A stretch of DNA of 64,000 nt, taken from contig JBARFA010000005.1 in the NCBI GenBank assembly GCA_049796755.1, forward strand, positions 2,625 to 66,624, written 5' to 3'. Position 1 is the stretch's first letter; every line of letters begins with the position of its first letter. Below the pieces are notes generated by a model. That model saw only the letters and a list, made by a program, of their open reading frames with translations, was not told the DNA's origin and did not search any database. A program made the translations under genes and the position numbers. Shown here in pieces: positions 15,328 to 45,656 of the stretch. Source of the stretch: Acidobacteriaceae bacterium (lineage in GTDB: Bacteria; Acidobacteriota; Terriglobia; Terriglobales; Acidobacteriaceae).

Positions 15328-16581
15328 TTAATCCTCTGCAGCGAGCCTCGCCACGTGCTCGGCAATGATGCGATCTTCGTCCGCCGGCAACACATAAACA
15401 ACGATCTTCGAGTCCGGCGCGCTGATGATCTTCGGTCCGGCGTGAGTGGGCTCATTCGCGGCGGGATCGAGCGCCAGGCCGAAAACATCCATGCCCACGC
15501 ACACCTGGGCGCGCGTCTTGGGATCGCGTTCGCCGATGCCCCCGGAGAATACCAGCGCATCCAGACCCCCCATCAACGTGACGTAGCCGCCGATCATTTT
15601 CTTGACCGACAACGCGAAGGCCTCAATCGCCAATGCGGCTTGCGTGTTTCCATTTTTTTCTGCTTCACGGAGGAGGCGCATGTCGTTGGATAGGCCGGAG
15701 AGTGCAAGCATGCCGGAACGCTTGTTCAGCAATTGCTCAACAGCGTGGGTGGCGTCGGCCGCGCTGCCACCTTGCAGACGCATCAGGTAAAAGACCAGGC
15801 CGGGATCGAGATCGCCGGGACGGGTGCCCATGATGACGCCGCTGGTAGGCGTAAGGCCCATGCAGTGATCGAGAGCTTTTCCATCGCGAATTGCGGTCAC
15901 GCTGGCGCCGCTGCCCAAATGGGCGTAGATTACGCGCGTTGGAATCTGGTTTGGAGGATTCAGGTTCGGGACTCGACCCTCTCGAAATTGTTCCATGATG
16001 GATTCGCACGATAAACCGTGAAAGCCATAGCGATGCACACCCTGATCGCGAATTTCTTTCGGCAACGGGTAGATCGACGCGACCTCCGGTAGGTCCTGAA
16101 GAAAAATCGTATCGAAACAGGCGTAGTTCTCGACGCCGGGAAAACTATCCTTCGCTTCACGAACAATTTCGAGTCCGATCGGCTGATGCAGCGGAGCGAA
16201 ACAGGTGGCCTTTTCAATTTCCAATAGCACTGCCGAGGTGATCGGTTGATGCGCGTGCAGATTCGGTCCTGTGTGGACGATGCGATGGCCGATGGCGGCA
16301 GGCTGAGTCAATCCCGACTGATGCAACAGGGCTGCAATCTTTCGCACGGCATCGCGGATCGAGCCAATATCTTTCGGTTCCGACTCCGACACCAGCGTCT
16401 CGCGTTTTCCGTCGCGAAAACCGTAAAAGTTGAACTGCGGCTCGGGGGTTCCGATGCCGCCCGCTTCGCCCTCGTTCAGCTTCGTCATCTGTTTGCCATT
16501 GGCAATGTAAATGGAAAATTTAATTGACGAGGATCCGCCATTAAAAACCAGGATCGGTAAATGTTTCAGGTCAGTTCTCAT
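15328..16581 (-). CDS. ackA: acetate kinase
   Basis: [19 protein letters not shown]-like HRIVHTG, and FTGGIGE-like FSGGIGE. I chose the ATG at 16581, which forms an ATGA overlap with the phosphoketolase stop. The longest ORF starts at 16599. Confidence 0.9.
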
Positions 16582-19010
16582 CCCAGGGGCCATTTCCACT
16601 CTCGAATTTCCTTTCGGTCGATCCCATTCTCGTGCGCGTAATCAACCGCGTCGGTGATTTGGTCTTTCAGCCATTCCTTAACGTGCGCTCCGGTTGCGCG
16701 CAGCTTCGGCACGCGGTCAATCACATCAATCGCCAGGTTGAATCTGTCCACCTGGTTCAGGATGGCGAGTTCCAGAGGTGTATTGATGTTGCCTTTTTCC
16801 TTGTATCCGCGGACATGCATGTTGTCGTGATTGGTGCGGCGATACGTCAGCTTATGGATCAGCGATGCATAGCCGTGAAAGTTGAAGATGACGGGCTTGT
16901 CCAGCGTAAACAGCGAATCGAAGTCACGGTCAGACAATCCGTGTGGATGTTCTGTTTCCGGCTCCAGCTTGAACAAATCGACCACGTTGACAAAGCGAAT
17001 CTTCAATCCCGGAAAGCGCTCGCGAAGAATTGCCACTGCTGCGAGCGATTCCATGGTGGCAATATCGCCGGCCGTTGCCATCACCACATCCGGCTCCGCA
17101 TCCTGATCGTTGCTTGCCCAGTCCCAAATGCCGATACCCTTGGTGCAGTGCCGCACAGCTTCCTCAATATTCAGATACTGCAGATGGGGCTGCTTGTCGG
17201 CAACAATCACGTTGACATAATTCGTACTGCGCAAACAATGATCGCCGACACTCAACAGACAATTCGCATCCGGCGGGAGATAGATGCGCGTGATGGCCGC
17301 GCTCTTGTTGGTCACGACGTCAAGAAATCCCGGGTCCTGATGGGTGAATCCGTTATGATCCTGCCGCCAGACCAGCGAAGTAATCAGAATGTTGATCGAG
17401 GAGATTGGCGCGCGCCATTTCACTTCTGTCTTGCACTTCTCCAGCCACTTAGCATGCTGGTTGAACATGGAATCGATGACGTGGACGAAGGCCTCATAGC
17501 TGGCGAATAGGCCGTGGCGTCCGGTGAGAACATAGCCCTCGAACCATCCTTCCAGCGTGTGTTCGCTCAGCATTTCCATGACGCGGCCGTCGAGCGATAG
17601 CTCGCCGCCGTCCTGATCTTCCGGCAAGTATTTGGCGAGCCAGGTTTTCTTGCTCGCCTCATAAATGGCCTGCAATTTGTTAGAGGCGGTTTCATCCGGC
17701 CCGAAGACGCGAAAGCTGTCCATGTTTCTGCGCATGGTTTCGGCGAGGAAATGCGCCAGCACTTCGGTGGGTCCTACTTCACTTGTCCCAGGTTTAGTCA
17801 CGGTAAACGCGAAGTCTTGAAAATCCGGCAGCCGCAAGGCCTTGCGCAGCAAACCGCCATTGGCGTGGGGATTGGCGCTGATCCGGCGATGACCCGTCGG
17901 CGGCAACTCTTTTAGCTCCGGAATTAGAGTGCCGGCGGCATCGAACAGTTCTTCCGGTTTGTAACTCTTCATCCAGTCTTCCAGCAGCCGCATGTGTGCC
18001 GGATTGGTGGTCACATCCAGAATTGGAATCTGATGCGCGCGCCAGAATCCTTCGACCTTGTGACCATCCAGTTCCTTCGGGCCGGTCCATCCTTTGGGGC
18101 TGCGCAGAACCACCATGGGCCAGCGCGGCCGATCGGCCGTGTTGGTACTGCGTGCGTGTTTCTGGATGGAGCGAATCTCCTGAACGCAATGCTCCAGCGT
18201 GGCCGCCATCTGCTGATGCATGATGTGCGGATCGTCTCCTTCAACGAAATACGGCGTCCATCCGTAGCCGCGCAGCAACTGCTCCAACTCCTGCGGGATA
18301 ATGCGCGCCAGGAGTGTGGGATTGGCGATTTTGTATCCATTCAGGTGCAGGATAGGAAGCACCGCGCCGTCGCGAATGGGGTTGAGGAATTTATTGGAGT
18401 GCCAGGAGGTCGCCAGCGGTCCGGTTTCCGCTTCGCCGTCGCCGACAACCACCGTGGCGATTAGATTCGGGTTATCGAAAGCCGCTCCAAACGCGTGCGA
18501 AATGCTGTAGCCGAGTTCGCCGCCCTCATGGATTGAACCGGGAGTTTCCGGAGTACAGTGGCTTCCAATTCCGCCCGGAAAGGAAAACTCTTTGAAGAAT
18601 TTCTGCATTCCTTCTTCATCTTCGCTCTTGTCGGGATAGACCTCAGAATATGTGCCTTCAAGATAGGCGTTGGATAAAGTGGCGGGCGCGCCGTGGCCCG
18701 GACCGGAAATGTAGATCATGTCGAGGTCGTATTTTTTGATCAGGCGATTCAGATGGACCCAGACAAATGTCTGGCCAGGGTCAGATCCCCAGTGGCCGAG
18801 CAGGCGCTGCTTGATATGTTCCGGGCGCAGCGGTTCGCGCAGCAATGGATTGTTCCGCAGGTAAAGCATGCCGACGCAGAGATAATTGCAGGCGCGCCAA
18901 TAGGCGTCCATCTTGTGCAGCTCCTCGCTGGCAAGCGGTTTGCGGGAAGCGATCTTGTTCGCGGCGGAGGCGGAACGACGGGCGGGGACGGTGCGGATGT
19001 CGGTGGTCAC
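16578..19010 (-). CDS. xfp: xylulose-5-phosphate/fructose-6-phosphate phosphoketolase
   Basis: 810 aa with hallmark motifs [16 protein letters not shown]-type [11 protein letters not shown], and the ThDP-binding GDGE region. Confidence 0.95.
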
Positions 19011-19125
19011 AGAAACCTCTCAATCGGCGATGACTACATATATTAGATGAGAGTTCTGCCGCGCCGTCATCGGGGCCCGCAAAATTGACATTCGCTTCAT
19101 GTTGGAACGGCGGTTTTGTGGTCGC

Positions 19126-20175
19126 TCAATCGCCATGGGCATCCGCAGTTTCAGCCACTTTGCCTCGAAACATGCGATAGACGAAGATAAAATATCCAAT
19201 CGCAAGCAGGATGCCAAAGCCCCACCAGACCAGTCCGACGGCCAGCCCATGGTGGCCTGCAAGCGCTTTTGAGATGGTGATGTCCTGCGCGGAGTTGCGG
19301 CTGGATGGCAACAGAACTGGGCAAAGACCCACGGCCGCTCCGGCCAACATCAGCGTCAAGTAAAGGCATGAACTTAGGAACGCAGGAAAATCTCTGTCCT
19401 TGCGCGAGTAAAGAAGGATGCCGAACAAACTGCCAAGCACGCCGGCGGGAATAAGAAACGCGATTGGATAGTGGAAGTAACTCTGCAAAACGGCGGGTCG
19501 CACCAGCATGGTTGCCGTCAGGCTCAGAATGGTGAGAATCAGCAGAAGAATCCAGGCGCGCTGCACCAGATCGCGCGCCCGTTGCTGCAGCTCTCCGCCG
19601 GTTTTGATCGCGAGGTACAGGCTGCCGTGAATTCCAAGGGCAACCAGCGCAACCAGGCCGCCGATCACGGTATACCAATCGAGAATGCCGGGATTGGGGC
19701 CGACTCTCCAGTTGGTCCACAAGGGAGCGAAGAAATATCCGTCGGCGTTCAGCGGCACTCCGCGAATGACATTGGCCAGCGCGGCACCAAGAAAGATGGC
19801 GAGCAGAATACTGGAGATGGCGAAGGAGCCATCGAAAAATCCGCGCCAGACGACGGTGCCGAAGTGCGATCGCAATTCGATGCCGATACCGCGCAGAATC
19901 AGAAGCCACAACACGATCATCAGCGGCAAATAAAACCCGCTGAATGATGACGCGTACAGCAGCGGAAACGCAAAGTAGAGCGTTCCGCCGCCAGCCAGCA
20001 GCCAAACCTCATTGCCATCCCACACAGGCCCGATGGTGCGCAGAATTGTATCGCGATCCTGGCTCGATCTAGCAACCAAGAAATGTGAGATGCCCACGCC
20101 AATATCGAAGCCGTCGAACACTACATACGCCACCAGCATCAGTGCGACAATCCAGAACCAGATCAAGCCCATCAT
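19126..20175 (-). CDS. cydB: cytochrome bd ubiquinol oxidase subunit II
   Basis: 349-aa polytopic protein immediately downstream of cydA. N-terminal pattern WFWIVALMLVAYVVFDGFDIGVG and the WDGNEVWLL motif. Confidence 0.9.
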   Translation of the reverse strand: MMGLIWFWIVALMLVAYVVFDGFDIGVGISHFLVARSSQDRDTILRTIGPVWDGNEVWLLAGGGTLYFAFPLLYASSFSGFYLPLMIVLWLLILRGIGIELRSHFGTVVWRGFFDGSFAISSILLAIFLGAALANVIRGVPLNADGYFFAPLWTNWRVGPNPGILDWYTVIGGLVALVALGIHGSLYLAIKTGGELQQRARDLVQRAWILLLILTILSLTATMLVRPAVLQSYFHYPIAFLIPAGVLGSLFGILLYSRKDRDFPAFLSSCLYLTLMLAGAAVGLCPVLLPSSRNSAQDITISKALAGHHGLAVGLVWWGFGILLAIGYFIFVYRMFRGKVAETADAHGD

Positions 20176-20196: not shown

Positions 20197-21561
20197 CTAT
20201 GCGGCGCTGACCGGTGCGCCTGTGTGGATGCCGGATGCGGGTGTGCGCTGCGGTCCGCGCGCAAGCTCGGCATAAATCAGGAAGACAAACAGGATCGACA
20301 ACATCGCATACAGCCCCATGAACCCAAGCAGCGTAAACAGCGTGTTCGCTGGAGAGACAAACTGGGAATATCCCTGGGTGGTGCGCATCAAGCCGTACAC
20401 CAGCCACGGTTGTCGACCAACCTCAGCCGTCAGCCAGCCTGCGGTATTGGCCACGTAAGGCAACGGAAAACTCAACATCAGCGCCCACAGCAGCCACTTC
20501 GCGTGAAACAACGTACCCCGCCACAACCAGATGACGGCCAGCACCATCAAGGCAACGAAGTAGGTCCCCAGACCGGCCATGATGTGATACGCGAAGAACA
20601 GGAGAGGTATATTGGTCGGCCATTGATCTTTGGGAAAACTCTCTAAGCCTTTGACTTCTGCCCGGGTGGTTCCATAGATCAGATAGCTGAGCACCTTGTT
20701 GACCACAAGCGGATTGTCAATCTGCTGATTCTCGACATTAGGCTGCCCCAACAGCACCATCGGAGCCCCTGGTTCCGTTTTGAAGAGACCCTCCATAGCG
20801 GCCACGGTCACCGGTTGGTGGCGAGCCAGGTATTTTCCGTGCATATCTCCACTGGGAAAGATCTGAAAAATGCAGGCAATCACTCCGGCGACGACACCCA
20901 CTCGCAGAAAAGCGCGACCATGGGCTGAGAATTTGTTTTCCAGCAGGTAAAACGCTCCTACCGAGCACATGACGAAGGCGCCGGTGATGACAGCTCCGCT
21001 CATGTTGTGGGCATATTCCAGCAGGGCCCAGGGATTCAGCAGTAACTTCCAGAAGCTGGTCACTTCATACGATCCGTTCGCCAGCACGCGATAGCCGACC
21101 GGATGCTGCATCCAGGCATTGGTGACGATGATGAAAAATCCCGAAATCCAGGAGCCGACAAACACCAGAAATGCGGCCGCCCAATGACCCCATTTAGAGA
21201 GGCGTTTTTCCCCGTACAGAAACAAGCCAAGAAATGCCGATTCCAGAAAGAAGGAGAACACGCCTTCCATGGCCAGCGGCTGGCCAATCACACCTCCGGT
21301 CATACGGGAGAACTGGGCCCAGTTGGTTCCGAACTGAAATTCCATCGGAATTCCCGTGACTACGCCCATGATGAAGTTGATCCCGAAGATACGCGCCCAG
21401 AACCGGGCTGCCTCGTCATAAACAGGATCATTGTTGCGAATGGCAATCGTCTTCAAAATGACGATTAGCAACGCCAATCCCATAGTAAGTTGAGGAAACA
21501 GATAGTGGTACGTGACCGTAAAGGCGAAATGCAGGCGATGGAGCAATAGCGCGTCAGACAT
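20197..21561 (-). CDS. cydA: cytochrome bd ubiquinol oxidase subunit I
   Basis: LHRLHFAFTVTYHYLFPQLTMG start region, Q-loop and GWLTAEVGRQPW motif. I chose the ATG at 21561 (RBS GGAAAGAGGGG upstream). The longest ORF starts at 21585. Confidence 0.9.
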   Translation of the reverse strand: MSDALLLHRLHFAFTVTYHYLFPQLTMGLALLIVILKTIAIRNNDPVYDEAARFWARIFGINFIMGVVTGIPMEFQFGTNWAQFSRMTGGVIGQPLAMEGVFSFFLESAFLGLFLYGEKRLSKWGHWAAAFLVFVGSWISGFFIIVTNAWMQHPVGYRVLANGSYEVTSFWKLLLNPWALLEYAHNMSGAVITGAFVMCSVGAFYLLENKFSAHGRAFLRVGVVAGVIACIFQIFPSGDMHGKYLARHQPVTVAAMEGLFKTEPGAPMVLLGQPNVENQQIDNPLVVNKVLSYLIYGTTRAEVKGLESFPKDQWPTNIPLLFFAYHIMAGLGTYFVALMVLAVIWLWRGTLFHAKWLLWALMLSFPLPYVANTAGWLTAEVGRQPWLVYGLMRTTQGYSQFVSPANTLFTLLGFMGLYAMLSILFVFLIYAELARGPQRTPASGIHTGAPVSAA

Positions 21562-21608
21562 GCGGCCCCTCTTTCCCTCAACCATAGGGAGGAAGAGTTG
21601 AAAACAGC

Positions 21609-21624
21609 GGTGACGACCGTCACA
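21609..21624. promoter_or_regulatory. Crp/Fnr-type palindrome upstream of cydAB
   Basis: GGTGACGACCGTCACA, that is GTGAC-N4-GTCAC with perfect arms. It is centred about 55 nt upstream of the cydA ATG at 21561. Confidence 0.5.
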
Positions 21625-21654
21625 GATGTTATATCAACTGTGGGATTTGACGGC

Positions 21655-22386
21655 CTAAACGAGAATCTCGAGCGCAGACTTGCGCAGGATGGTCAGCGAT
21701 GTTCCCTTGATGGAAATAATCTCTTTGCGCTTGAGTTCGCTCAGCACGCGCGTGATGGATTCGCGCGTTGTGCCCAGCATAGTGGCCAGTTCTTCGTGGG
21801 TCAACGACATGGTGAAGCGCGGTTTGGCATCGCGCGAGCCCGATGTCATTTCCAGCAGCAGCCGGGCGACACGGCCGGCGATCGACATGGAAAGCGCGAG
21901 CCGGGTGGCATCGCCCAGGGCATCGCGATATTCCTTATTGATCATCTTGGTCGCATGCATGCTGCCTTCCAGATGGTGTTCGATGAAGTGCAGAAAGTCC
22001 TGCCGCTGAAATGATTTCACCTGGACCGGCTCGATCGCCTGCGCAGTAATTTCATACGCCGTGCCGGAGACGGCAGCGCTCAGACCGAGCACATCTCCGG
22101 GCCTGGCAATTCTTACCAGCAGCGTCTTGCCATCTTTTGAGGAGGTGGTCAGCTTCACATGGCCGCCGCACAAGATATACACGCTGCGAGCAGTTTGCGA
22201 CTCAAAGAAAAGCGTGCTGCCGGAAGGAACTGTCATCTGCATGCCAAGCGTTTCAAATTCCACCAGCGCCTGCGGAGAAAGATTGCAGAACCAGTCGGCA
22301 TGCCTCTCCTTGCACATGAAGCAGCCTTCATTTTCCATTCTGTTGACACAGTTGTCAGTCATGGTCGCACCCTGAAAATTCAACAC
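21655..22386 (-). CDS. Crp/Fnr family transcriptional regulator with N-terminal Cys cluster
   Basis: cNMP-binding-like beta-roll (ILCGGHVKL) and a C-terminal HTH (THEELATMLGTTRESITRVLSEL). The N-terminus has C13, C22, C25 and C34 (CVNRMENEGCFMCKERHADWFC). Confidence 0.85.
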   Translation of the reverse strand: MLNFQGATMTDNCVNRMENEGCFMCKERHADWFCNLSPQALVEFETLGMQMTVPSGSTLFFESQTARSVYILCGGHVKLTTSSKDGKTLLVRIARPGDVLGLSAAVSGTAYEITAQAIEPVQVKSFQRQDFLHFIEHHLEGSMHATKMINKEYRDALGDATRLALSMSIAGRVARLLLEMTSGSRDAKPRFTMSLTHEELATMLGTTRESITRVLSELKRKEIISIKGTSLTILRKSALEILV

Positions 22387-22418
22387 AATCTAGTATTGTT
22401 TTCCTGGCGTCAATCGTT

Positions 22419-22434
22419 TGTGACGTGCATCACA
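22419..22434. promoter_or_regulatory. Crp/Fnr-type palindrome in the divergent promoter region between the crp/fnr gene and the NapH-like gene
   Basis: TGTGACGTGCATCACA matches TGTGA-N6-TCACA exactly. It is centred about 40 nt from the regulator start and about 55 nt from the NapH-like start. Confidence 0.55.
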
Positions 22435-22480
22435 GCTGTCGCTTTCGCCTTCCTCTAGAGTCAACCTTTGAGGGTGGGGG

Positions 22481-23632
22481 ATGTCCGCACAGTCTGAGGC
22501 CGAGTTGCAGCAGCCCATGGATGCAGGCAGCATACCTGACGGAGTCACTGCCGGGTTTGTTTCGTCGATTGCTAAACCCCGCAAGAAGCTGATTCGACGT
22601 ACCTTACAGGACCGTTCGCAGTGGTTTCGTCATAGCGTTCAGGCCGCCTTTGTGATGCTGAACATAGGGCTCGGAATCCAGTTTTGCCTATGGACACGCT
22701 ACTATGACACGGCCGGAAAAACGCTGTATGTGAACCGCCCCGCCGGGGTCGAAGGATGGCTGCCCATCGCCGGCATGATGAACACGAAATACCTGCTGGA
22801 AACCCATCACATTCCCCAGATTCATCCGGCAGCCATGTTTCTGTTCCTCGCATTCCTGCTCAGCAGCCTGCTGCTGAAAAAAGCGTTCTGCTCTTGGCTA
22901 TGCCCGATCGGCACGTTGTCAGAACTGCTATGGAAAACAGGCGCGAAGCTTTTCGGCAGAAACTTTCGGCTTCTCAAATGGCTCGACCTCCCGCTGCGCG
23001 GATTGAAATATCTCCTGCTCAGCTTTTTTGCATTTGTAATTGGAAGTATGTCGGCTGCGGCGTTGGCTGACTTTTTGCATTCGCCGTACGGCATGGTCGC
23101 GGATGTGAAAATGCTGAATTTCTTCCGCGACATGGGCCAGATCGGGATCATCGTTTTCGTCGTTCTGCTCTCGCTTTCTCTGTTCATACGGAATTTCTGG
23201 TGCCGCTATTTGTGCCCATACGGGGCGTTGATGGGATTGGCATCGCTGCTGAGTCCGGCAAAGATTCGGCGCGATGCGGCTGCATGTATCGATTGTAGGA
23301 AGTGCGCGCGTGCCTGCTCGGCCAACCTGCCAGTCGATCGGCTGATCCAGATTCGCTCTGTAGAATGCGCGGCCTGCATGGAATGTATCGCTGTGTGTCC
23401 GGCGGAGAACGCATTGCAGTTTTCGCTTCCACCCCGTCGCAGGGCTGAAGGGAGTGATCGCTGGCGCAATCTTGTGCTGACTCCCATGGCCGTGGTGATT
23501 GTGCTGGCGTGCGTCTTTTTTGGATTTGTCGGGTTCGCGAAAGCGAGCGGGCACTGGAATACAAATCTGCCGCGCTCGCTCTACATGGAACTGGTACCCA
23601 ATGCGAATCACCTCGCGCATCCGGGAATGTGA
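22481..23632 (+). CDS. NapH/NosR-like membrane 4Fe-4S binding protein
   Basis: Several TM segments, two CxxxCP motifs (CSWLCPIG, CRYLCPYG), and two ferredoxin-type motifs (CIDCRKCARAC, CAACMECIAVCP). Confidence 0.75.
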   Translation: MSAQSEAELQQPMDAGSIPDGVTAGFVSSIAKPRKKLIRRTLQDRSQWFRHSVQAAFVMLNIGLGIQFCLWTRYYDTAGKTLYVNRPAGVEGWLPIAGMMNTKYLLETHHIPQIHPAAMFLFLAFLLSSLLLKKAFCSWLCPIGTLSELLWKTGAKLFGRNFRLLKWLDLPLRGLKYLLLSFFAFVIGSMSAAALADFLHSPYGMVADVKMLNFFRDMGQIGIIVFVVLLSLSLFIRNFWCRYLCPYGALMGLASLLSPAKIRRDAAACIDCRKCARACSANLPVDRLIQIRSVECAACMECIAVCPAENALQFSLPPRRRAEGSDRWRNLVLTPMAVVIVLACVFFGFVGFAKASGHWNTNLPRSLYMELVPNANHLAHPGM

Positions 23633-23976
23633 GCTCAGTCAACAGGGATCAGGGGCAAGTTGCTCTAGGACAGTGGAGCGCCAAAGCCTTCCCGGCGTCG
23701 CCTTTCGCGGGCGTTGCAGATTTGGCGGTGGGTCGGAAGGTCTCAAAGTATCTCTCAGAATATTTACAGTTTGCGCTTCGACTAGCCCGCAAAGGGCTTC
23801 ATCATCGAAGCGCATTTCTTGACAGCGCTGAGAAGAAGAAGGGGCTCGCGTTGAGAGGCAATGCGGTGATCATTCCGGCGAGAGAGTATCTTTGGATTAG
23901 TGACGCAAGCGACCTCCCTTTGCTCGATAAATCAAACTGATCCCTGCTCCCTGTCCACTCTTCCCTGTTCCGTGTG

Positions 23977-24738
23977 CTAGATGCCTTCGCCCATACTCAC
24001 GTAATCTGACCGCGGATATTGCTGGCTGCGATAGCGCGTGCGTTCTTCTTCTTCCACGGCGAGCGCGCTTTCAGGATCTGTCAACAAGGTTTGCTGCAGC
24101 TGGCCATCCAGGAGCTCCACGCGAGATTTCAGACGCTTCACTTCGTCACAGAGAGCGACGATCACATCCGATAATGGATCATTGATTTCGCGTGGATCGG
24201 TAATTAACACGCGTTTGCCGCCTTGATACACGATGTGCGCTGGAACACCGACGACGGTCGAATCCGGTGGCACGTCGCGCAGCACGACGGAGCCGGCACC
24301 CACGCGAGAATGCTCTCCAATGGTGATATCGCCAAGGATGTTGGCATTGTTGCCGACAAACACTCCATCGCGAAGGGTCGGATGGCGCTTTCCGGTGCCC
24401 TTTCCGGTACCGCCGAGCGTCACACCCTGATAGAGCGTCACGTCGTCCCCAATGATTGCCGTCTGGCCAATCACCACGCCGATGCCGTGATCGATAAACA
24501 GTCGTCGGCCGATCTGCGCCTCTGGATGGATCTCAATTCCCGTCCAGAAACGGGTGACTTGCGACATCAGTCGAGGCAGCAGACGCCAGCCATGCGACCA
24601 AAGCCTGTGATGGATGCGATGGGCCCACACGGCGTGCAGGCCCGGATAGCACAGCAGCACCATCGCCTTCGAGGTAGCCGCAGGGTCGCGCTCGAACACG
24701 CAGCGAACGTCTTCGCGAATCAATCGAACCAGATTCAT
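23977..24738 (-). CDS. cysE: serine O-acetyltransferase
   Basis: N-terminal SATase helical domain ([30 protein letters not shown]), IHPEAQIG, and left-handed beta-helix hexapeptide repeats. Confidence 0.9.
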
Positions 24739-24759
24739 AGAAGCGGTCTCATGACCGCG

Positions 24760-25731
24760 TCATACCGTCACGGCGGATGTTTTGGTTTCCATGGCCTCTT
24801 TGCGGAACTCGTCGAACAACACGGTCGACAGGTATCGCTCGCCGCCGCTGGGAATGATGACAACGATCAACTTTCCCGCGTTCTTCGGGTTCTTCGCCAC
24901 CTGGATCGCGGCATGGACCGCCGCTCCGGAGGAGATGCCAACCAGCAGGCCTTCTTCCTTCGGCAACCGACGCGCCATGGCAATAGCTTCGTCGTTTGTG
25001 ACCTGAACGATCTCGTCAATCAGATCGGTCTTCAGCACCTTGGGAACGAATCCAGCGCCAATTCCCTGGATTTTGTGCGGCCCGGGTTTGCCTCCGGAAA
25101 GCACAGGACTGTCGGCGGGCTCGACAGCGACCGTCCAGAAGCCAGGTTTTTTTGCCTTGATATATTCGCTGACGCCGGTCAGGGTTCCACCGGTACCGAC
25201 TCCGGAAATAAGGATATCGGCTTTGCCATCGGTGTCGTTCCAGATCTCCGGGCCGGTGGTATCGAAGTGAATCTTCGGGTTCGCAGGATTGTTAAATTGC
25301 TGCAGCATATAGCCGTTCGGAGTCTCTTTCAGAATCTCTTCTGCCTTGGCGACGGCGCCCTTTACGCCGCTCGGGCCGGGAGTCAGGACAATTTTCGCGC
25401 CAAACGTCAGCAACAGGATTCTGCGTTCCAGGCTCATCGTATCCGGCATGGTCAGGATGATGTCGTAGCCCTTGACCGCAGCAACAAATGCTAGCGCAAT
25501 GCCGGTATTGCCGCTCGTGGGCTCAATCAACACGGTTTTTCCGGGAGCAATCTTTCCTTCCCGCTCGGCCGCCTCAATCATGGCCAGGCCAATGCGGTCT
25601 TTCACGCTGCTCAGCGGGTTCTGGCTCTCCAGCTTTACCACCACTCTCGCCTTGCTGCCTTCGGTCACATGATGCAACTCCACCAGAGGAGTACGTCCAA
25701 TCAGATCCGTTACGCTTGCGGCAATATTCAT
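24760..25731 (-). CDS. cysK: cysteine synthase A (O-acetylserine sulfhydrylase)
   Basis: PLP-lysine motif [16 protein letters not shown], and [10 protein letters not shown]. Located 21 nt upstream of cysE. Confidence 0.9.
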
Positions 25732-25787
25732 GGTCGGTCCTTTCTACAGTCCTAGATAACAAAAGCATACCGTTTTTTGAGTTGGGC

Positions 25788-25803
25788 CGTGACGCACGTC
25801 ACG
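25788..25803. promoter_or_regulatory. Crp/Fnr-type palindrome between cysK and the 2OG oxygenase gene
   Basis: CGTGACGCACGTCACG, that is GTGAC-N4-GTCAC with perfect arms. It is centred about 65 nt from both divergent start codons. Confidence 0.45.
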
Positions 25804-25861
25804 GAGGAATGTGCGCCGGAGTGAGACCGTATTCCTGAGTGCCTGCTTTCGGAGGTTGGGT

Positions 25862-26590
25862 ATGACCTATCTCGACTCGGGACATATCGAGTCTCTTTCC
25901 CCGGAAAAGTTCCGTACGCGGAAGCCCTATCCCTGGATCAGTATTCCGGCTGCATTGACGGCAGAAGGCTTTGAGCGCTTGCGCAACGCCATGCCCGATG
26001 TGGAGAAGTTCGACCGCAAGGTCGGGATCAAACGAGGGTACGGACAAGCTCCGCATGATCGCTACATTCTGCATTACAGGACGGGCATCGAATTGCCGGA
26101 ACCATGGAAGGAATTTGTCGCTGAGCTGCAAGGCAATGCCTACCAGTCCTGGCTGCGAAGGATGCTGGGTCCGCAGCAGTTTATTTTGACGATGGAGTGG
26201 TATTACGCGTGGCAAGGATGCTCCGTCTCCCCACACTGTGATGCACGACGCAAGCTGGCAACCCACATTTTTTACTTCAATACGGACGAGGACTGGGATG
26301 AAAACTGGGGTGGCCAGATCCTGATGATGGATGACGAGGGCCGCTGCAAGCCGCATTCCGCACCGGCCTTCGACGATCTGAAAGTGGCCGCTTCGCTGGT
26401 TCCGCGCGGAAATGAGAGCCTGTTTTTTCAACGGACTGATCATTCCTGGCACGGCGTCCGGCCTTTGGAATGCCCATCCAACAGCCTGCGAAAGCTCTTT
26501 ATTGTGACCGTGAACGTGCCTACATTTCAGGTGTGGTGGAGGCGCGTTCGCGGGAAAGATCCCGACGGATACCGGATGGGAGCGGCGTGA
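25862..26590 (+). CDS. 2OG-Fe(II) oxygenase superfamily protein
   Basis: HxD (SPHCD) plus a distal His (SWHGV) in a jelly-roll-like context. I chose the ATG at 25862 (GGAGG upstream). The longest ORF starts with GTG at 25811. Confidence 0.65.
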   Translation: MTYLDSGHIESLSPEKFRTRKPYPWISIPAALTAEGFERLRNAMPDVEKFDRKVGIKRGYGQAPHDRYILHYRTGIELPEPWKEFVAELQGNAYQSWLRRMLGPQQFILTMEWYYAWQGCSVSPHCDARRKLATHIFYFNTDEDWDENWGGQILMMDDEGRCKPHSAPAFDDLKVAASLVPRGNESLFFQRTDHSWHGVRPLECPSNSLRKLFIVTVNVPTFQVWWRRVRGKDPDGYRMGAA

Positions 26591-26701
26591 AAGTTTGAAA
26601 GCCGGGCGCGACCGGAGCTGCAAAGTGAAAAGCACTTCCACCGCTTGGGATAACGACTGGCGGTGAATCTTAGAATCCGAAGCAAAGAAAGCGGTCCTTA
26701 T

Positions 26702-27196
26702 ATGTCATCCACAGAAACAATCCAGGTTCCATCGAAAACCCACACGCCAGTCAGCAAAAAGGCCATCACAGAGCCGCGCGTGCTGAACGAAGCTTTCGAA
26801 TACGCCAAGCCATCGTCGTTCTCCCGCGGGCTGCGGCTGGACATCAAAGGCGTCACCATCCTGCTGATTTCAGGCACCGCGAGCATCGATGAGTTTGGAA
26901 AAACCGTGCATGTCGGGGATTTTGGCGCACAAATGGCCCGTACCCTGCACAACATCACTGGCCTGCTGGCTGCCGAAGGCGCTACCTGGAAGGATGTTGT
27001 GCGGACAAGCTGCTATTTGCGCGATATCGAGCGAGATTACGACGAGTTCAACCAGATACGGACGCAGTTCTTTCGGGAACAAGGGCTGAACCCTTTGCCC
27101 GCCTCCACGGGGATCCAGGCAATTCTTTGCCGCCCTGATCTGCTGATTGAGATTGAGGCGATGGTCATGTTCGAGACCGATCACTCAGCACAATAG
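26702..27196 (+). CDS. RidA/YjgF family protein
   Basis: YjgF-like pattern ILLISGTASID ... VVRTSCYLRDI ... PASTGIQA ... LIEIEAMV. I chose the ATG at 26702. Confidence 0.7.
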   Translation: MSSTETIQVPSKTHTPVSKKAITEPRVLNEAFEYAKPSSFSRGLRLDIKGVTILLISGTASIDEFGKTVHVGDFGAQMARTLHNITGLLAAEGATWKDVVRTSCYLRDIERDYDEFNQIRTQFFREQGLNPLPASTGIQAILCRPDLLIEIEAMVMFETDHSAQ

Positions 27197-45539: not shown

Positions 45540-45656
45540 TATTTGTGACTGGAAACACAGCCACCCTATGCTACGATGAGACGCGGCACCCCGCCGCGCA
45601 ACAGTAAAACCTGCTTCTATTTCTGGCCATCCCCGAGGTCGCGTGATAACGTTCGC

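Follow-up and report, generated by a model that had tools for sequence, protein, structure and literature searches.

Intergenic palindromes around cydAB as predicted operators of a cysteine-rich Crp/Fnr-family regulator in uncultured soil Acidobacteriaceae

Three palindromes surround a Crp/Fnr-family regulator gene

The DNA analysed here is a stretch of 64,000 nucleotides (nt) from an Acidobacteriaceae genome (assembly GCA_049796755.1, contig JBARFA010000005.1, positions 2,625 to 66,624), referred to as the window; coordinates are those of the window unless a contig or locus is named. The source genome (code G000) comprises 4.57 Mb in 231 contigs with 56.6% G+C, and its nearest public relatives are uncultured Acidobacteriaceae metagenome-assembled genomes. 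The window holds a gene for a Crp/Fnr-family regulator of 235 amino acids (21655-22362, minus strand; PF00027, E 1e-16; PF13545, E 2e-19; PF00325), with three palindromes of the form GTGAC-N4-GTCAC around it. We propose that these palindromes are probably operators of this cysteine-rich protein and belong to a genome-wide low-oxygen regulon, binding and activation being predicted. In this group of uncultured soil Acidobacteriaceae, the regulator most likely switches on the high-affinity cytochrome bd oxidase together with about 40 other low-oxygen promoters.

Site A, GGTGACGACCGTCACA (21609-21624), lies between the regulator stop codon and cydA (20197-21561, minus strand; PF01654, E 1e-147), with its centre 55.5 nt upstream of the cydA ATG; cydA and cydB (19126-20175, minus strand; PF02322) encode cytochrome bd oxidase subunits I and II and form one operon, a predicted activated target. 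Site B, TGTGACGTGCATCACA (22419-22434), is 54.5 nt upstream of a gene for a NapH/MauN/NosR-like polyferredoxin membrane protein (22481-23632, plus strand; Pfam Fer4_5 twice and a 4Fe-4S dicluster domain), also a predicted activated target, and 64.5 nt upstream of the regulator ATG. Site C, CGTGACGCACGTCACG (25788-25803), is 66.5 nt upstream of the ATG of a 2-oxoglutarate (2OG)-Fe(II) oxygenase-superfamily gene (25862-26590, plus strand; PF13640), its predicted target, and 64.5 nt upstream of the cysK ATG (24760-25731, minus strand; NCBIfam equivalog). Flanking genes were identified by Pfam and NCBIfam profile searches, and the start codons of cydA (21561), the regulator (22362) and the 2OG oxygenase (25862) were refined from alignment with relatives. 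An earlier note on this DNA, made from the sequence alone, had described the three palindromes; we confirmed all of them in sequence and position, and all are intergenic. The distance from centre to start codon that it had put at 40-66 nt is 54.5-66.5 nt with the refined starts.

The palindrome is enriched between genes across the genome

Within the window, the evidence against a chance origin is modest: GTGAC-N4-GTCAC with at most one mismatch occurs six times against 1.64 expected, a count reached in 1 of 100 shuffles. The genome-wide scan proposed in the earlier note was run as a pattern search, with genes called by a simple in-house open reading frame (ORF) caller based on codon usage (86% coding, 14% intergenic). 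The exact motif was found 13 times between genes and never within one (binomial about 1e-11), and TGTGAC-N4-GTCACA with at most one mismatch likewise had all 11 of its genome matches in intergenic DNA. As controls we used 60 palindromes X-N4-rc(X), in which the half-site X is a permutation of GTGAC and rc its reverse complement; these averaged 1 intergenic and 5.5 coding matches, with a maximum of 4 intergenic matches for any one of them. Among all 1024 palindromes of the 5-N4-5 type, GTGAC ranks second by intergenic count in the source genome.

Allowing the C/T degeneracy seen in relatives, GTGAY-N4-RTCAC matched 40 intergenic and 15 coding positions genome-wide. The outer T/A of TGTGA is not preferred, and the informative core is GTGAY-N4-RTCAC. 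The flanks of the 40 sites share no common sequence and carry no information beyond 16 bp, so the sites are not copies of a repeat family. The claim that the palindromes are more than chance is thus borne out by the genome-wide intergenic bias and the controls, and their reading as Crp/Fnr-type operators draws support from these statistics and from the conservation described below. Although TGTGA-N6-TCACA with one mismatch is not enriched within the window (three matches against 1.69 expected), the intergenic bias, the controls, the conservation, the fixed promoter spacing and the unrelated flanks of the 40 sites leave next to no chance that the three palindromes are random occurrences or copies of a repeat element.

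Two other 5-N4-5 palindromes are also unusually frequent between genes in the source genome, namely GTTGC-N4-GCAAC, with 20 intergenic and 21 coding matches, and CGGAC-N4-GTCCG, with 12 and 4, respectively. Each could be the operator of another regulator or part of a repeat.

Sites A and B fit a predicted class II promoter spacing

The start of TAnnnT relative to the box centre was recorded for 48 site-gene pairs of the source genome. It falls at +30 or +31 in 13 of the 48, the background being 0.63 for each position (Poisson P 1e-9), and the genes concerned include cydA, the NapH-like gene, pta, hypA, ccmF, a hemY-like gene, an aldehyde dehydrogenase gene and one gene each for a cytochrome c, a multihaem cytochrome and a Usp protein. 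If the hexamer occupies -12 to -7 as a -10 element, the centre of the box would fall at -41.5 or -42.5. This is the class II position, from which CRP/FNR proteins touch RNA polymerase directly. In the predicted cydAB promoter, the -10-like hexamer TATGGT (21581-21586, minus strand) starts 31 nt from the centre of Site A, which puts the site near -42.5, and in the predicted promoter of the NapH-like gene TAGAGT (22456-22461, plus strand) starts 30 nt from the centre of Site B, which puts it at -41.5. Relative to these predicted transcription starts, both sites appear in class II activation geometry, in support of the earlier note's choice of cydAB and the NapH-like gene as targets.

Site B is conserved in relatives, where TAnnnT reads TAGAGT, TAAAGT, TACAGT or TATAGT at an unchanged distance. 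In two loci (L044 and L045), two genes have been inserted between the NapH-like gene and the regulator, which now lie 2.5 kb apart; the NapH-like gene keeps both the box in front of it and, 30-31 nt from the box centre, a TAnnnT, and no site is found upstream of the regulator. Judged by these rearrangements, Site B belongs to the NapH-like gene. Since it travels with that gene and none is left before the regulator, the autoregulation that had been predicted for the Crp/Fnr protein is not conserved in the window's clade. The target itself scores 82.5 bits against TIGR02163 (NapH/MauN), for which the cut-off is 213, and has no adjacent nap genes; by these profile scores and this gene context it is a NapH-like polyferredoxin, related to NapH but not NapH proper.

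In more distant family members, tandem boxes spaced exactly 22 bp, or two turns of the helix, lie some 250-380 nt before the regulator gene (L068:5613-5650 and L098:4730-4767). In contrast to the window's clade, these lineages may thus show autoregulation.

Site A and the motif follow the regulator

Across 13 orthologous loci, down to 71% regulator identity, Site A is the sole conserved island 3' of the regulator stop codon. Its GTGA..TCA is invariant in all 13, even where the flanks cannot be aligned or a tandem-Usp gene replaces cydA. The -10-like hexamer of cydA is conserved in the alignment as well, reading TATGGT here and TATCGT in relatives. On this pattern of conservation, Site A serves cydAB.

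In one relative, G018 (locus L056, C1:206100-206460), two short fragments are all that is left of the regulator gene, immediately upstream of an intact cydAB whose cydA is 90% identical. Its Site A reads TGTTACGTTTGTCACA, in which an otherwise invariant G is lost and the core GTGAC has become GTTAC. Read from these remnants, G018 is a natural loss of the regulator, accompanied by mutation of the operator core.

Orthologues of the regulator (68-98% identity) are present in 15 of 25 same-genus genomes, and the density of the exact motif is 1.63 per Mb in these 15 against 0.43 in the 10 genomes without one (Mann-Whitney P 0.001). A reversed-pattern control does not differ between the two groups (0.73 and 0.57 per Mb, respectively). 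Because the genomes lacking an orthologue still have other Crp paralogues and yet show low density, the enrichment tracks this regulator.

Site A could instead be an intrinsic terminator of the regulator gene, acting as an RNA hairpin and not as a protein-binding site. A terminator scan does call GTGACGGTCGTCAC followed by CGCTGTTTTC terminator-like, and the computed folding energy of the 61-nt RNA is -14.4 kcal/mol (z -3.3). However, the stem is only 5 bp long, the T-tract and outer stem are not conserved in G023, G013, G011 and G010, whereas GTGA..TCA is, and some 40 promoters have the same sequence, among them those of divergent regions, in which a terminator would serve no purpose. We rejected this explanation as very improbable on account of the hairpin features not being conserved among relatives.

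In the source genome only, Site A lies inside a longer imperfect dyad (AGTTGA..AACA..GTGAC/GTCAC..TGTT..TCAACT; 21590-21650, minus strand), the outer arms of which are not conserved in relatives. The longer dyad (AACATC..) is thus local to Site A.

Site C follows the 2OG oxygenase and not cysK

Site C and the next ~45 nt are conserved with the 2OG oxygenase in 12 of 13 genomes with a readable upstream region (G021, where the contig ends too early, was left out, and G023 keeps only a site ~190 nt upstream). In six genomes (L041, L042, G019, G013, G011 and G016) the site is kept even though the sequence on the cysK side is unrelated, and in the five loci where the oxygenase is not a neighbour, no box was found within 300 nt upstream of cysK. 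Control of cysteine synthesis by the Crp/Fnr protein, which the earlier note had considered possible, is unsupported because cysK lacks a site in those five loci. By this comparison, cysK adjoins Site C here through gene order only and is not a supported member of the regulon.

Fourteen of the 15 same-genus genomes that carry the four-Cys regulator also have the oxygenase gene, which is missing from all 10 that lack the regulator (hypergeometric about 3e-6) and from all 16 genomes of other genera. For an oxygen-dependent 2OG oxygenase co-inherited with a putative oxygen sensor, this may reflect a functional tie. In five deeper-branching genomes (G019, G013, G011, G016 and L042) the oxygenase and its site lie directly downstream of a Cys-free paralogue of the regulator (C93 type), and seven other genomes that have the four-Cys regulator but no such paralogue retain both the oxygenase and Site C. 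Given these seven paralogue-free genomes and the co-occurrence of 14/15 against 0/10, we assign Site C to the four-Cys regulator; co-regulation by the Cys-free paralogue is possible. Neither direction from Site C shows a canonical -10 hexamer at +30/31; TATGCT stands at +27 on the cysK side and TATTCC at +35 on the oxygenase side. Site C would act on the promoter of the oxygenase, perhaps extending to the RidA-like gene 3' of it (26663-27196), with either sign of regulation.

At three sites, GTGCGC occurs 16-21 nt downstream of the box centre: before the 2OG oxygenase (25804-25825), a periplasmic beta-propeller-like gene and ScdA (G000 C195:15403-15416 and C93:26997-27010), a recurrence that is borderline by chance. 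Its candidacy as a shared promoter element was dropped, as it is not strictly conserved in the 2OG promoters of relatives.

The boxes outline a predicted genome-wide low-oxygen regulon

The earlier note had described the regulon as local. The roughly 40 intergenic GTGAY-N4-RTCAC sites are instead spread over the genome. Predicted targets whose gene identity Pfam confirmed comprise a cytochrome c, three of five tandem-Usp proteins, a PTA_PTB phosphotransacylase, a NiFe-hydrogenase small subunit, HypA, a HoxE/NuoE-like [2Fe-2S] protein and CcmE. Those identified by reading of their sequence only are CcmF, cytochrome oxidase subunit II, three multihaem cytochromes, an aldehyde dehydrogenase, GpmA and a protoporphyrinogen oxidase-like protein. 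Such content is the classical low-oxygen set of FNR/ANR regulators.

Similar arrangements accompany distant members of the family. The regulator P0060 (59% identity) is located among Usp genes and a cydAB operon with eight boxes in intergenic gaps, one of them directly 3' of the regulator stop codon and another 45 nt before cydA. P0115 (56%) has a box and then a NiFe-hydrogenase operon 3' of the regulator, with another box upstream of a multihaem cytochrome, and P0077 (57%) is followed by a box with a Usp gene and then by a class II-spaced box before a multihaem cytochrome. In L048 the regulator is inside a pta/usp cluster, and orthologues of those genes have boxes on contig C184 of the source genome. 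The same box arrangement accompanies a family member at 57% identity in assembly GCA_001006305.1, which we take to be a cultured Silvibacterium isolate; if so, genetics and biochemistry of the system would be feasible.

The regulator combines a CRP-type body with four invariant cysteines

From 1085 relatives, all of them generically named, we aligned 46 sequences with identities as low as 54%. Invariant throughout are C14, C17, C26, C65, W24, F25, R200, E201 and R205. The cysteines form an N-terminal C-X2-C-X8-C arm plus C65 on beta-roll strand 60-66, while C5 is not conserved. The regulator has no cysteine after position 65 (its C-terminus is ...LEILV), and none is conserved there across the alignment or near the start of the dimer helix. 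The recognition helix R200-E201-S-I-T-R205, RES[IV]TR in the family, is of the CRP type R-E-x-x-x-R.

The general features of the Crp/Fnr superfamily are in place, as Pfam recognizes a cyclic nucleotide monophosphate (cNMP)-binding-type beta-roll and a C-terminal Crp-type winged helix-turn-helix, and the AlphaFold2 (AF2) model shows the beta-roll, long helix and helix-turn-helix of the expected Crp fold (predicted local distance difference test, pLDDT, 79). In a profile search against solved structures, Mycobacterium tuberculosis CRP and Corynebacterium GlxR came out best (E 2e-22) and FNR was weak (E 2e-12). The protein scores below every NCBIfam equivalog cut-off: 48.8 against 266 bits for CRP (NF008732), 41 against 228 for Fnr and 49.5 against 300 for FnrL. 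It shares the recognition helix and the GTGA-N6-TCAC core of CRP proper, but neither its score nor its cyclic AMP (cAMP)-contact residues, as the phosphate-binding R-[ST] is replaced by an invariant Y103-E104 and the Glu of FGE is lost (invariant L94). In place of the C-X2-C-X5-C motif with a central Cys equivalent to C122, the E-x-x-S-R helix and the TTGAT-N4-ATCAA box of E. coli-type FNR, there are C-X2-C-X8-C with C65, RES[IV]TR and GTGAY-N4-RTCAC; the C-terminal Cys cluster of Bacillus-type Fnr is absent. From its sequence features we place the regulator in an unnamed family with a CRP-clade body, predicted CRP-type DNA specificity and no recognizable cAMP site.

Binder and signal of the predicted regulon

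From the motif, its conservation, its co-evolution with the regulator, the promoter spacing and the regulon content, all computed here, we infer direct binding and activation by the regulator and an Fe-S/oxygen signal. A regulator dimer would bind GTGAY-N4-RTCAC, which is a CRP-type GTGA-N6-TCAC box, through its R-E-x-x-x-R helix. At cydAB and the NapH-like gene, the box ~41.5-42.5 bp upstream of the predicted start would replace the -35 element and activate transcription, and since it also precedes about 40 other promoters, the local trio would be part of a global regulon of low oxygen or energy limitation. A metal or Fe-S centre on C14, C17, C26 and C65 is the probable sensor of the signal; as in FNR, such a centre would be expected to be oxygen-labile, leaving the regulator active when oxygen is scarce.

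Several observations weigh against this proposal. The intergenic test rests on the gene calls of a crude in-house ORF caller, and the exact GTGAC palindrome is not enriched in genomes whose orthologues are 68-77% identical, although degenerate GTGAY/RTCAC sites nevertheless adjoin those orthologues. Site C lacks class II spacing, and the 2OG gene of several deeper-branching relatives is found immediately 3' of another paralogue, one that is Cys-free. R-E-x-x-x-R helices occur in five paralogues of the source genome, which could therefore recognize this box too. Finally, the AF2 model has low confidence in the N-terminal Cys arm (pLDDT 32-62 over the first 30 residues) and does not define whether the four cysteines cluster.

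The boxes might thus be real and yet bound mainly by one or more of these paralogues, in a cascade like that from ANR to DNR, a reading that applies most to Site C. Candidates are C114 (RESITR), C27 and C59 (RETVTR) and the Cys-free C93 (REVVTR), the contact residues being common to all five. C93 has a box of its own, GGTGATAAAAGTCACT, a C93-type paralogue stands upstream of the 2OG gene and its site in the five genomes named above, and Site C departs from the spacing of Sites A and B. On the other hand, motif enrichment follows the four-Cys regulator, with other paralogues also present in unenriched genomes, Site A accompanies that regulator in every locus and decays where it is lost, and the 2OG gene with Site C occurs in seven genomes without a C93-type paralogue. 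We therefore regard a paralogue as the main binder as quite unlikely. The earlier note's attribution of the sites to the adjacent regulator holds in so far as this protein is the best candidate, which enrichment and the decay of Site A both follow; with five paralogues sharing its helix, the attribution needed this additional evidence, which favours the adjacent regulator.

The box of the C93 paralogue lies in the divergent region between its gene and one for the iron-centre repair protein RIC/ScdA, an identity that Pfam confirms (G000 C93:26210-27303, outside the window). In several relatives the gene of this paralogue immediately precedes the pair of 2OG oxygenase and RidA genes. By analogy, this locus looks like a nitrosative-stress module of the DNR/NnrR style with the same box.

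Returning to the four-Cys regulator as binder, its signal could be nitric oxide (NO), the thiol/disulfide redox state or a metal, in which case the four cysteines would bind Zn or act as a redox switch. In favour of this reading, neither known FNR architecture has such a Cys spacing or its fourth Cys at this position, the protein is nearer to actinobacterial CRP/GlxR than to FNR, and the AF2 model leaves the Cys arm undefined; moreover, cytochrome bd, RIC and Usp genes are NO-responsive in other bacteria as well (PMC5073308). A set of four invariant cysteines with a C-X2-C among them, however, is typical of a 4-Cys cluster or metal site. The regulon, too, is the classical FNR/ANR low-oxygen set, with a high-affinity oxidase, hydrogenase, cytochrome c maturation, Usp and Pta/phosphoketolase genes. 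Taken together, we consider a signal other than oxygen rather unlikely.

With oxygen as the preferred signal, the Cys signature and the regulon content suggest, by analogy, that the four cysteines hold an oxygen-labile Fe-S cluster. Our most far-reaching proposal is accordingly tentative, and we hold it with some doubt: the regulator may represent a third Fe-S (or thiol/metal) oxygen or redox sensor architecture in the Crp/Fnr superfamily, consisting of a cAMP-free CRP/GlxR body with a C-X2-C-X8-C arm and C65, and may serve as master activator of the hypoxic programme of Acidobacteriaceae, which would comprise cytochrome bd, NiFe hydrogenase, cytochromes c, Usp proteins and fermentation to acetate.

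Relation to known systems

Crp-family control of cydAB, oxygen sensors acting on CRP-type boxes at -41.5 and a regulator gene upstream of cydAB were known already. What is new here is the sensor architecture, the phylum, the reconstructed regulon and the finding that an uncharacterised 2OG oxygenase is inherited in close step with the regulator.

In Mycobacterium smegmatis, cydAB is activated by a Crp-family protein through TGTGA-N6-TCACA boxes in its upstream region, with induction of the oxidase under limited respiration (PMC7739888). The system described here resembles M. smegmatis Crp1 (MSMEG_6189) and M. tuberculosis CRP (Rv3676) in pairing a Crp-family protein with a CRP-type box upstream of cydAB. 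It differs in the position of the box, predicted at about -41.5 here and found at -65.5 and -93.5 in mycobacteria, and in the protein: mycobacterial CRP binds cAMP and lacks a Cys arm, whereas here Y103-E104 replace the contact residues and four cysteines are invariant.

The oxygen-responsive Fnr of Bacillus subtilis, which Reents and colleagues are said to have described in 2006, reportedly acts on a CRP-type TGTGA-N6-TCACA box at class II positions. The present system shares the CRP-type box and is predicted to place it at class II positions too, but Bacillus Fnr carries its [4Fe-4S] cluster on C-terminal cysteines and an aspartate, unlike the N-terminal C-X2-C-X8-C and C65 found here. With the FNR of Escherichia coli and Aliivibrio fischeri (PDB 5E44) and the ANR of Pseudomonas, our regulator has in common an N-terminal Cys arm with C-X2-C, as well as, by prediction, a global low-oxygen regulon (oxidases, Usp, fermentation genes of the Pta-AckA type) with class II sites at -41.5. 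In contrast, FNR uses C20, C23, C29 and C122 (C-X2-C-X5-C), an E-x-x-S-R helix and a TTGAT-N4-ATCAA box, where the present protein has C-X2-C-X8-C, its fourth Cys on a beta-roll strand, R-E-x-x-x-R and GTGA-N6-TCAC. CydR of Azotobacter vinelandii, a canonical FNR, reportedly represses cydAB through FNR boxes, as Wu et al. are said to have found. Its gene, like the regulator gene here, lies immediately upstream of cydAB in the same orientation, but the geometry in the window predicts activation through a CRP-type box and not repression through FNR boxes.

Acidobacteriaceae are dominant in many soils and peatlands, where they are among the most abundant soil bacteria and survive shifting oxygen. 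The present analysis supplies a concrete and testable regulator, box and target list for their low-oxygen response, and the targets connect the high-affinity oxidase with hydrogenase, cytochrome c maturation, Usp proteins and acetate-forming fermentation. In Acidobacterium capsulatum, Trojan et al. found cydA induced as oxygen falls, at nanomolar oxygen, and named no regulator (PMC8407424). Our literature searches found no regulator or regulon named for this acidobacterial cydA response and nothing relevant on an acidobacterial Crp/Fnr regulon. The sensor architecture proposed above would, if true, explain this induction, so far without a mechanism.

Other features of the window

The window's neighbouring genes further include cysE (23977-24738, minus strand; NCBIfam equivalog) and, by the same profile searches, one for a CHASE3-PAS histidine kinase. 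Within the gap between the genes of an ABC ATPase and permease region, a near-box, TGTGACTGGAAACACA (45544-45559), has one core broken (ACAC) and is probably non-functional. The synteny cydA-cydB-xfp is kept in relatives, and in all those bearing cydAB the phosphoketolase gene follows 3' of cydB after a 116-nt gap (region 16578-19125 in the window). This gap contains no box, and the phosphoketolase gene may share a transcript with cydAB or be served by a separate promoter.

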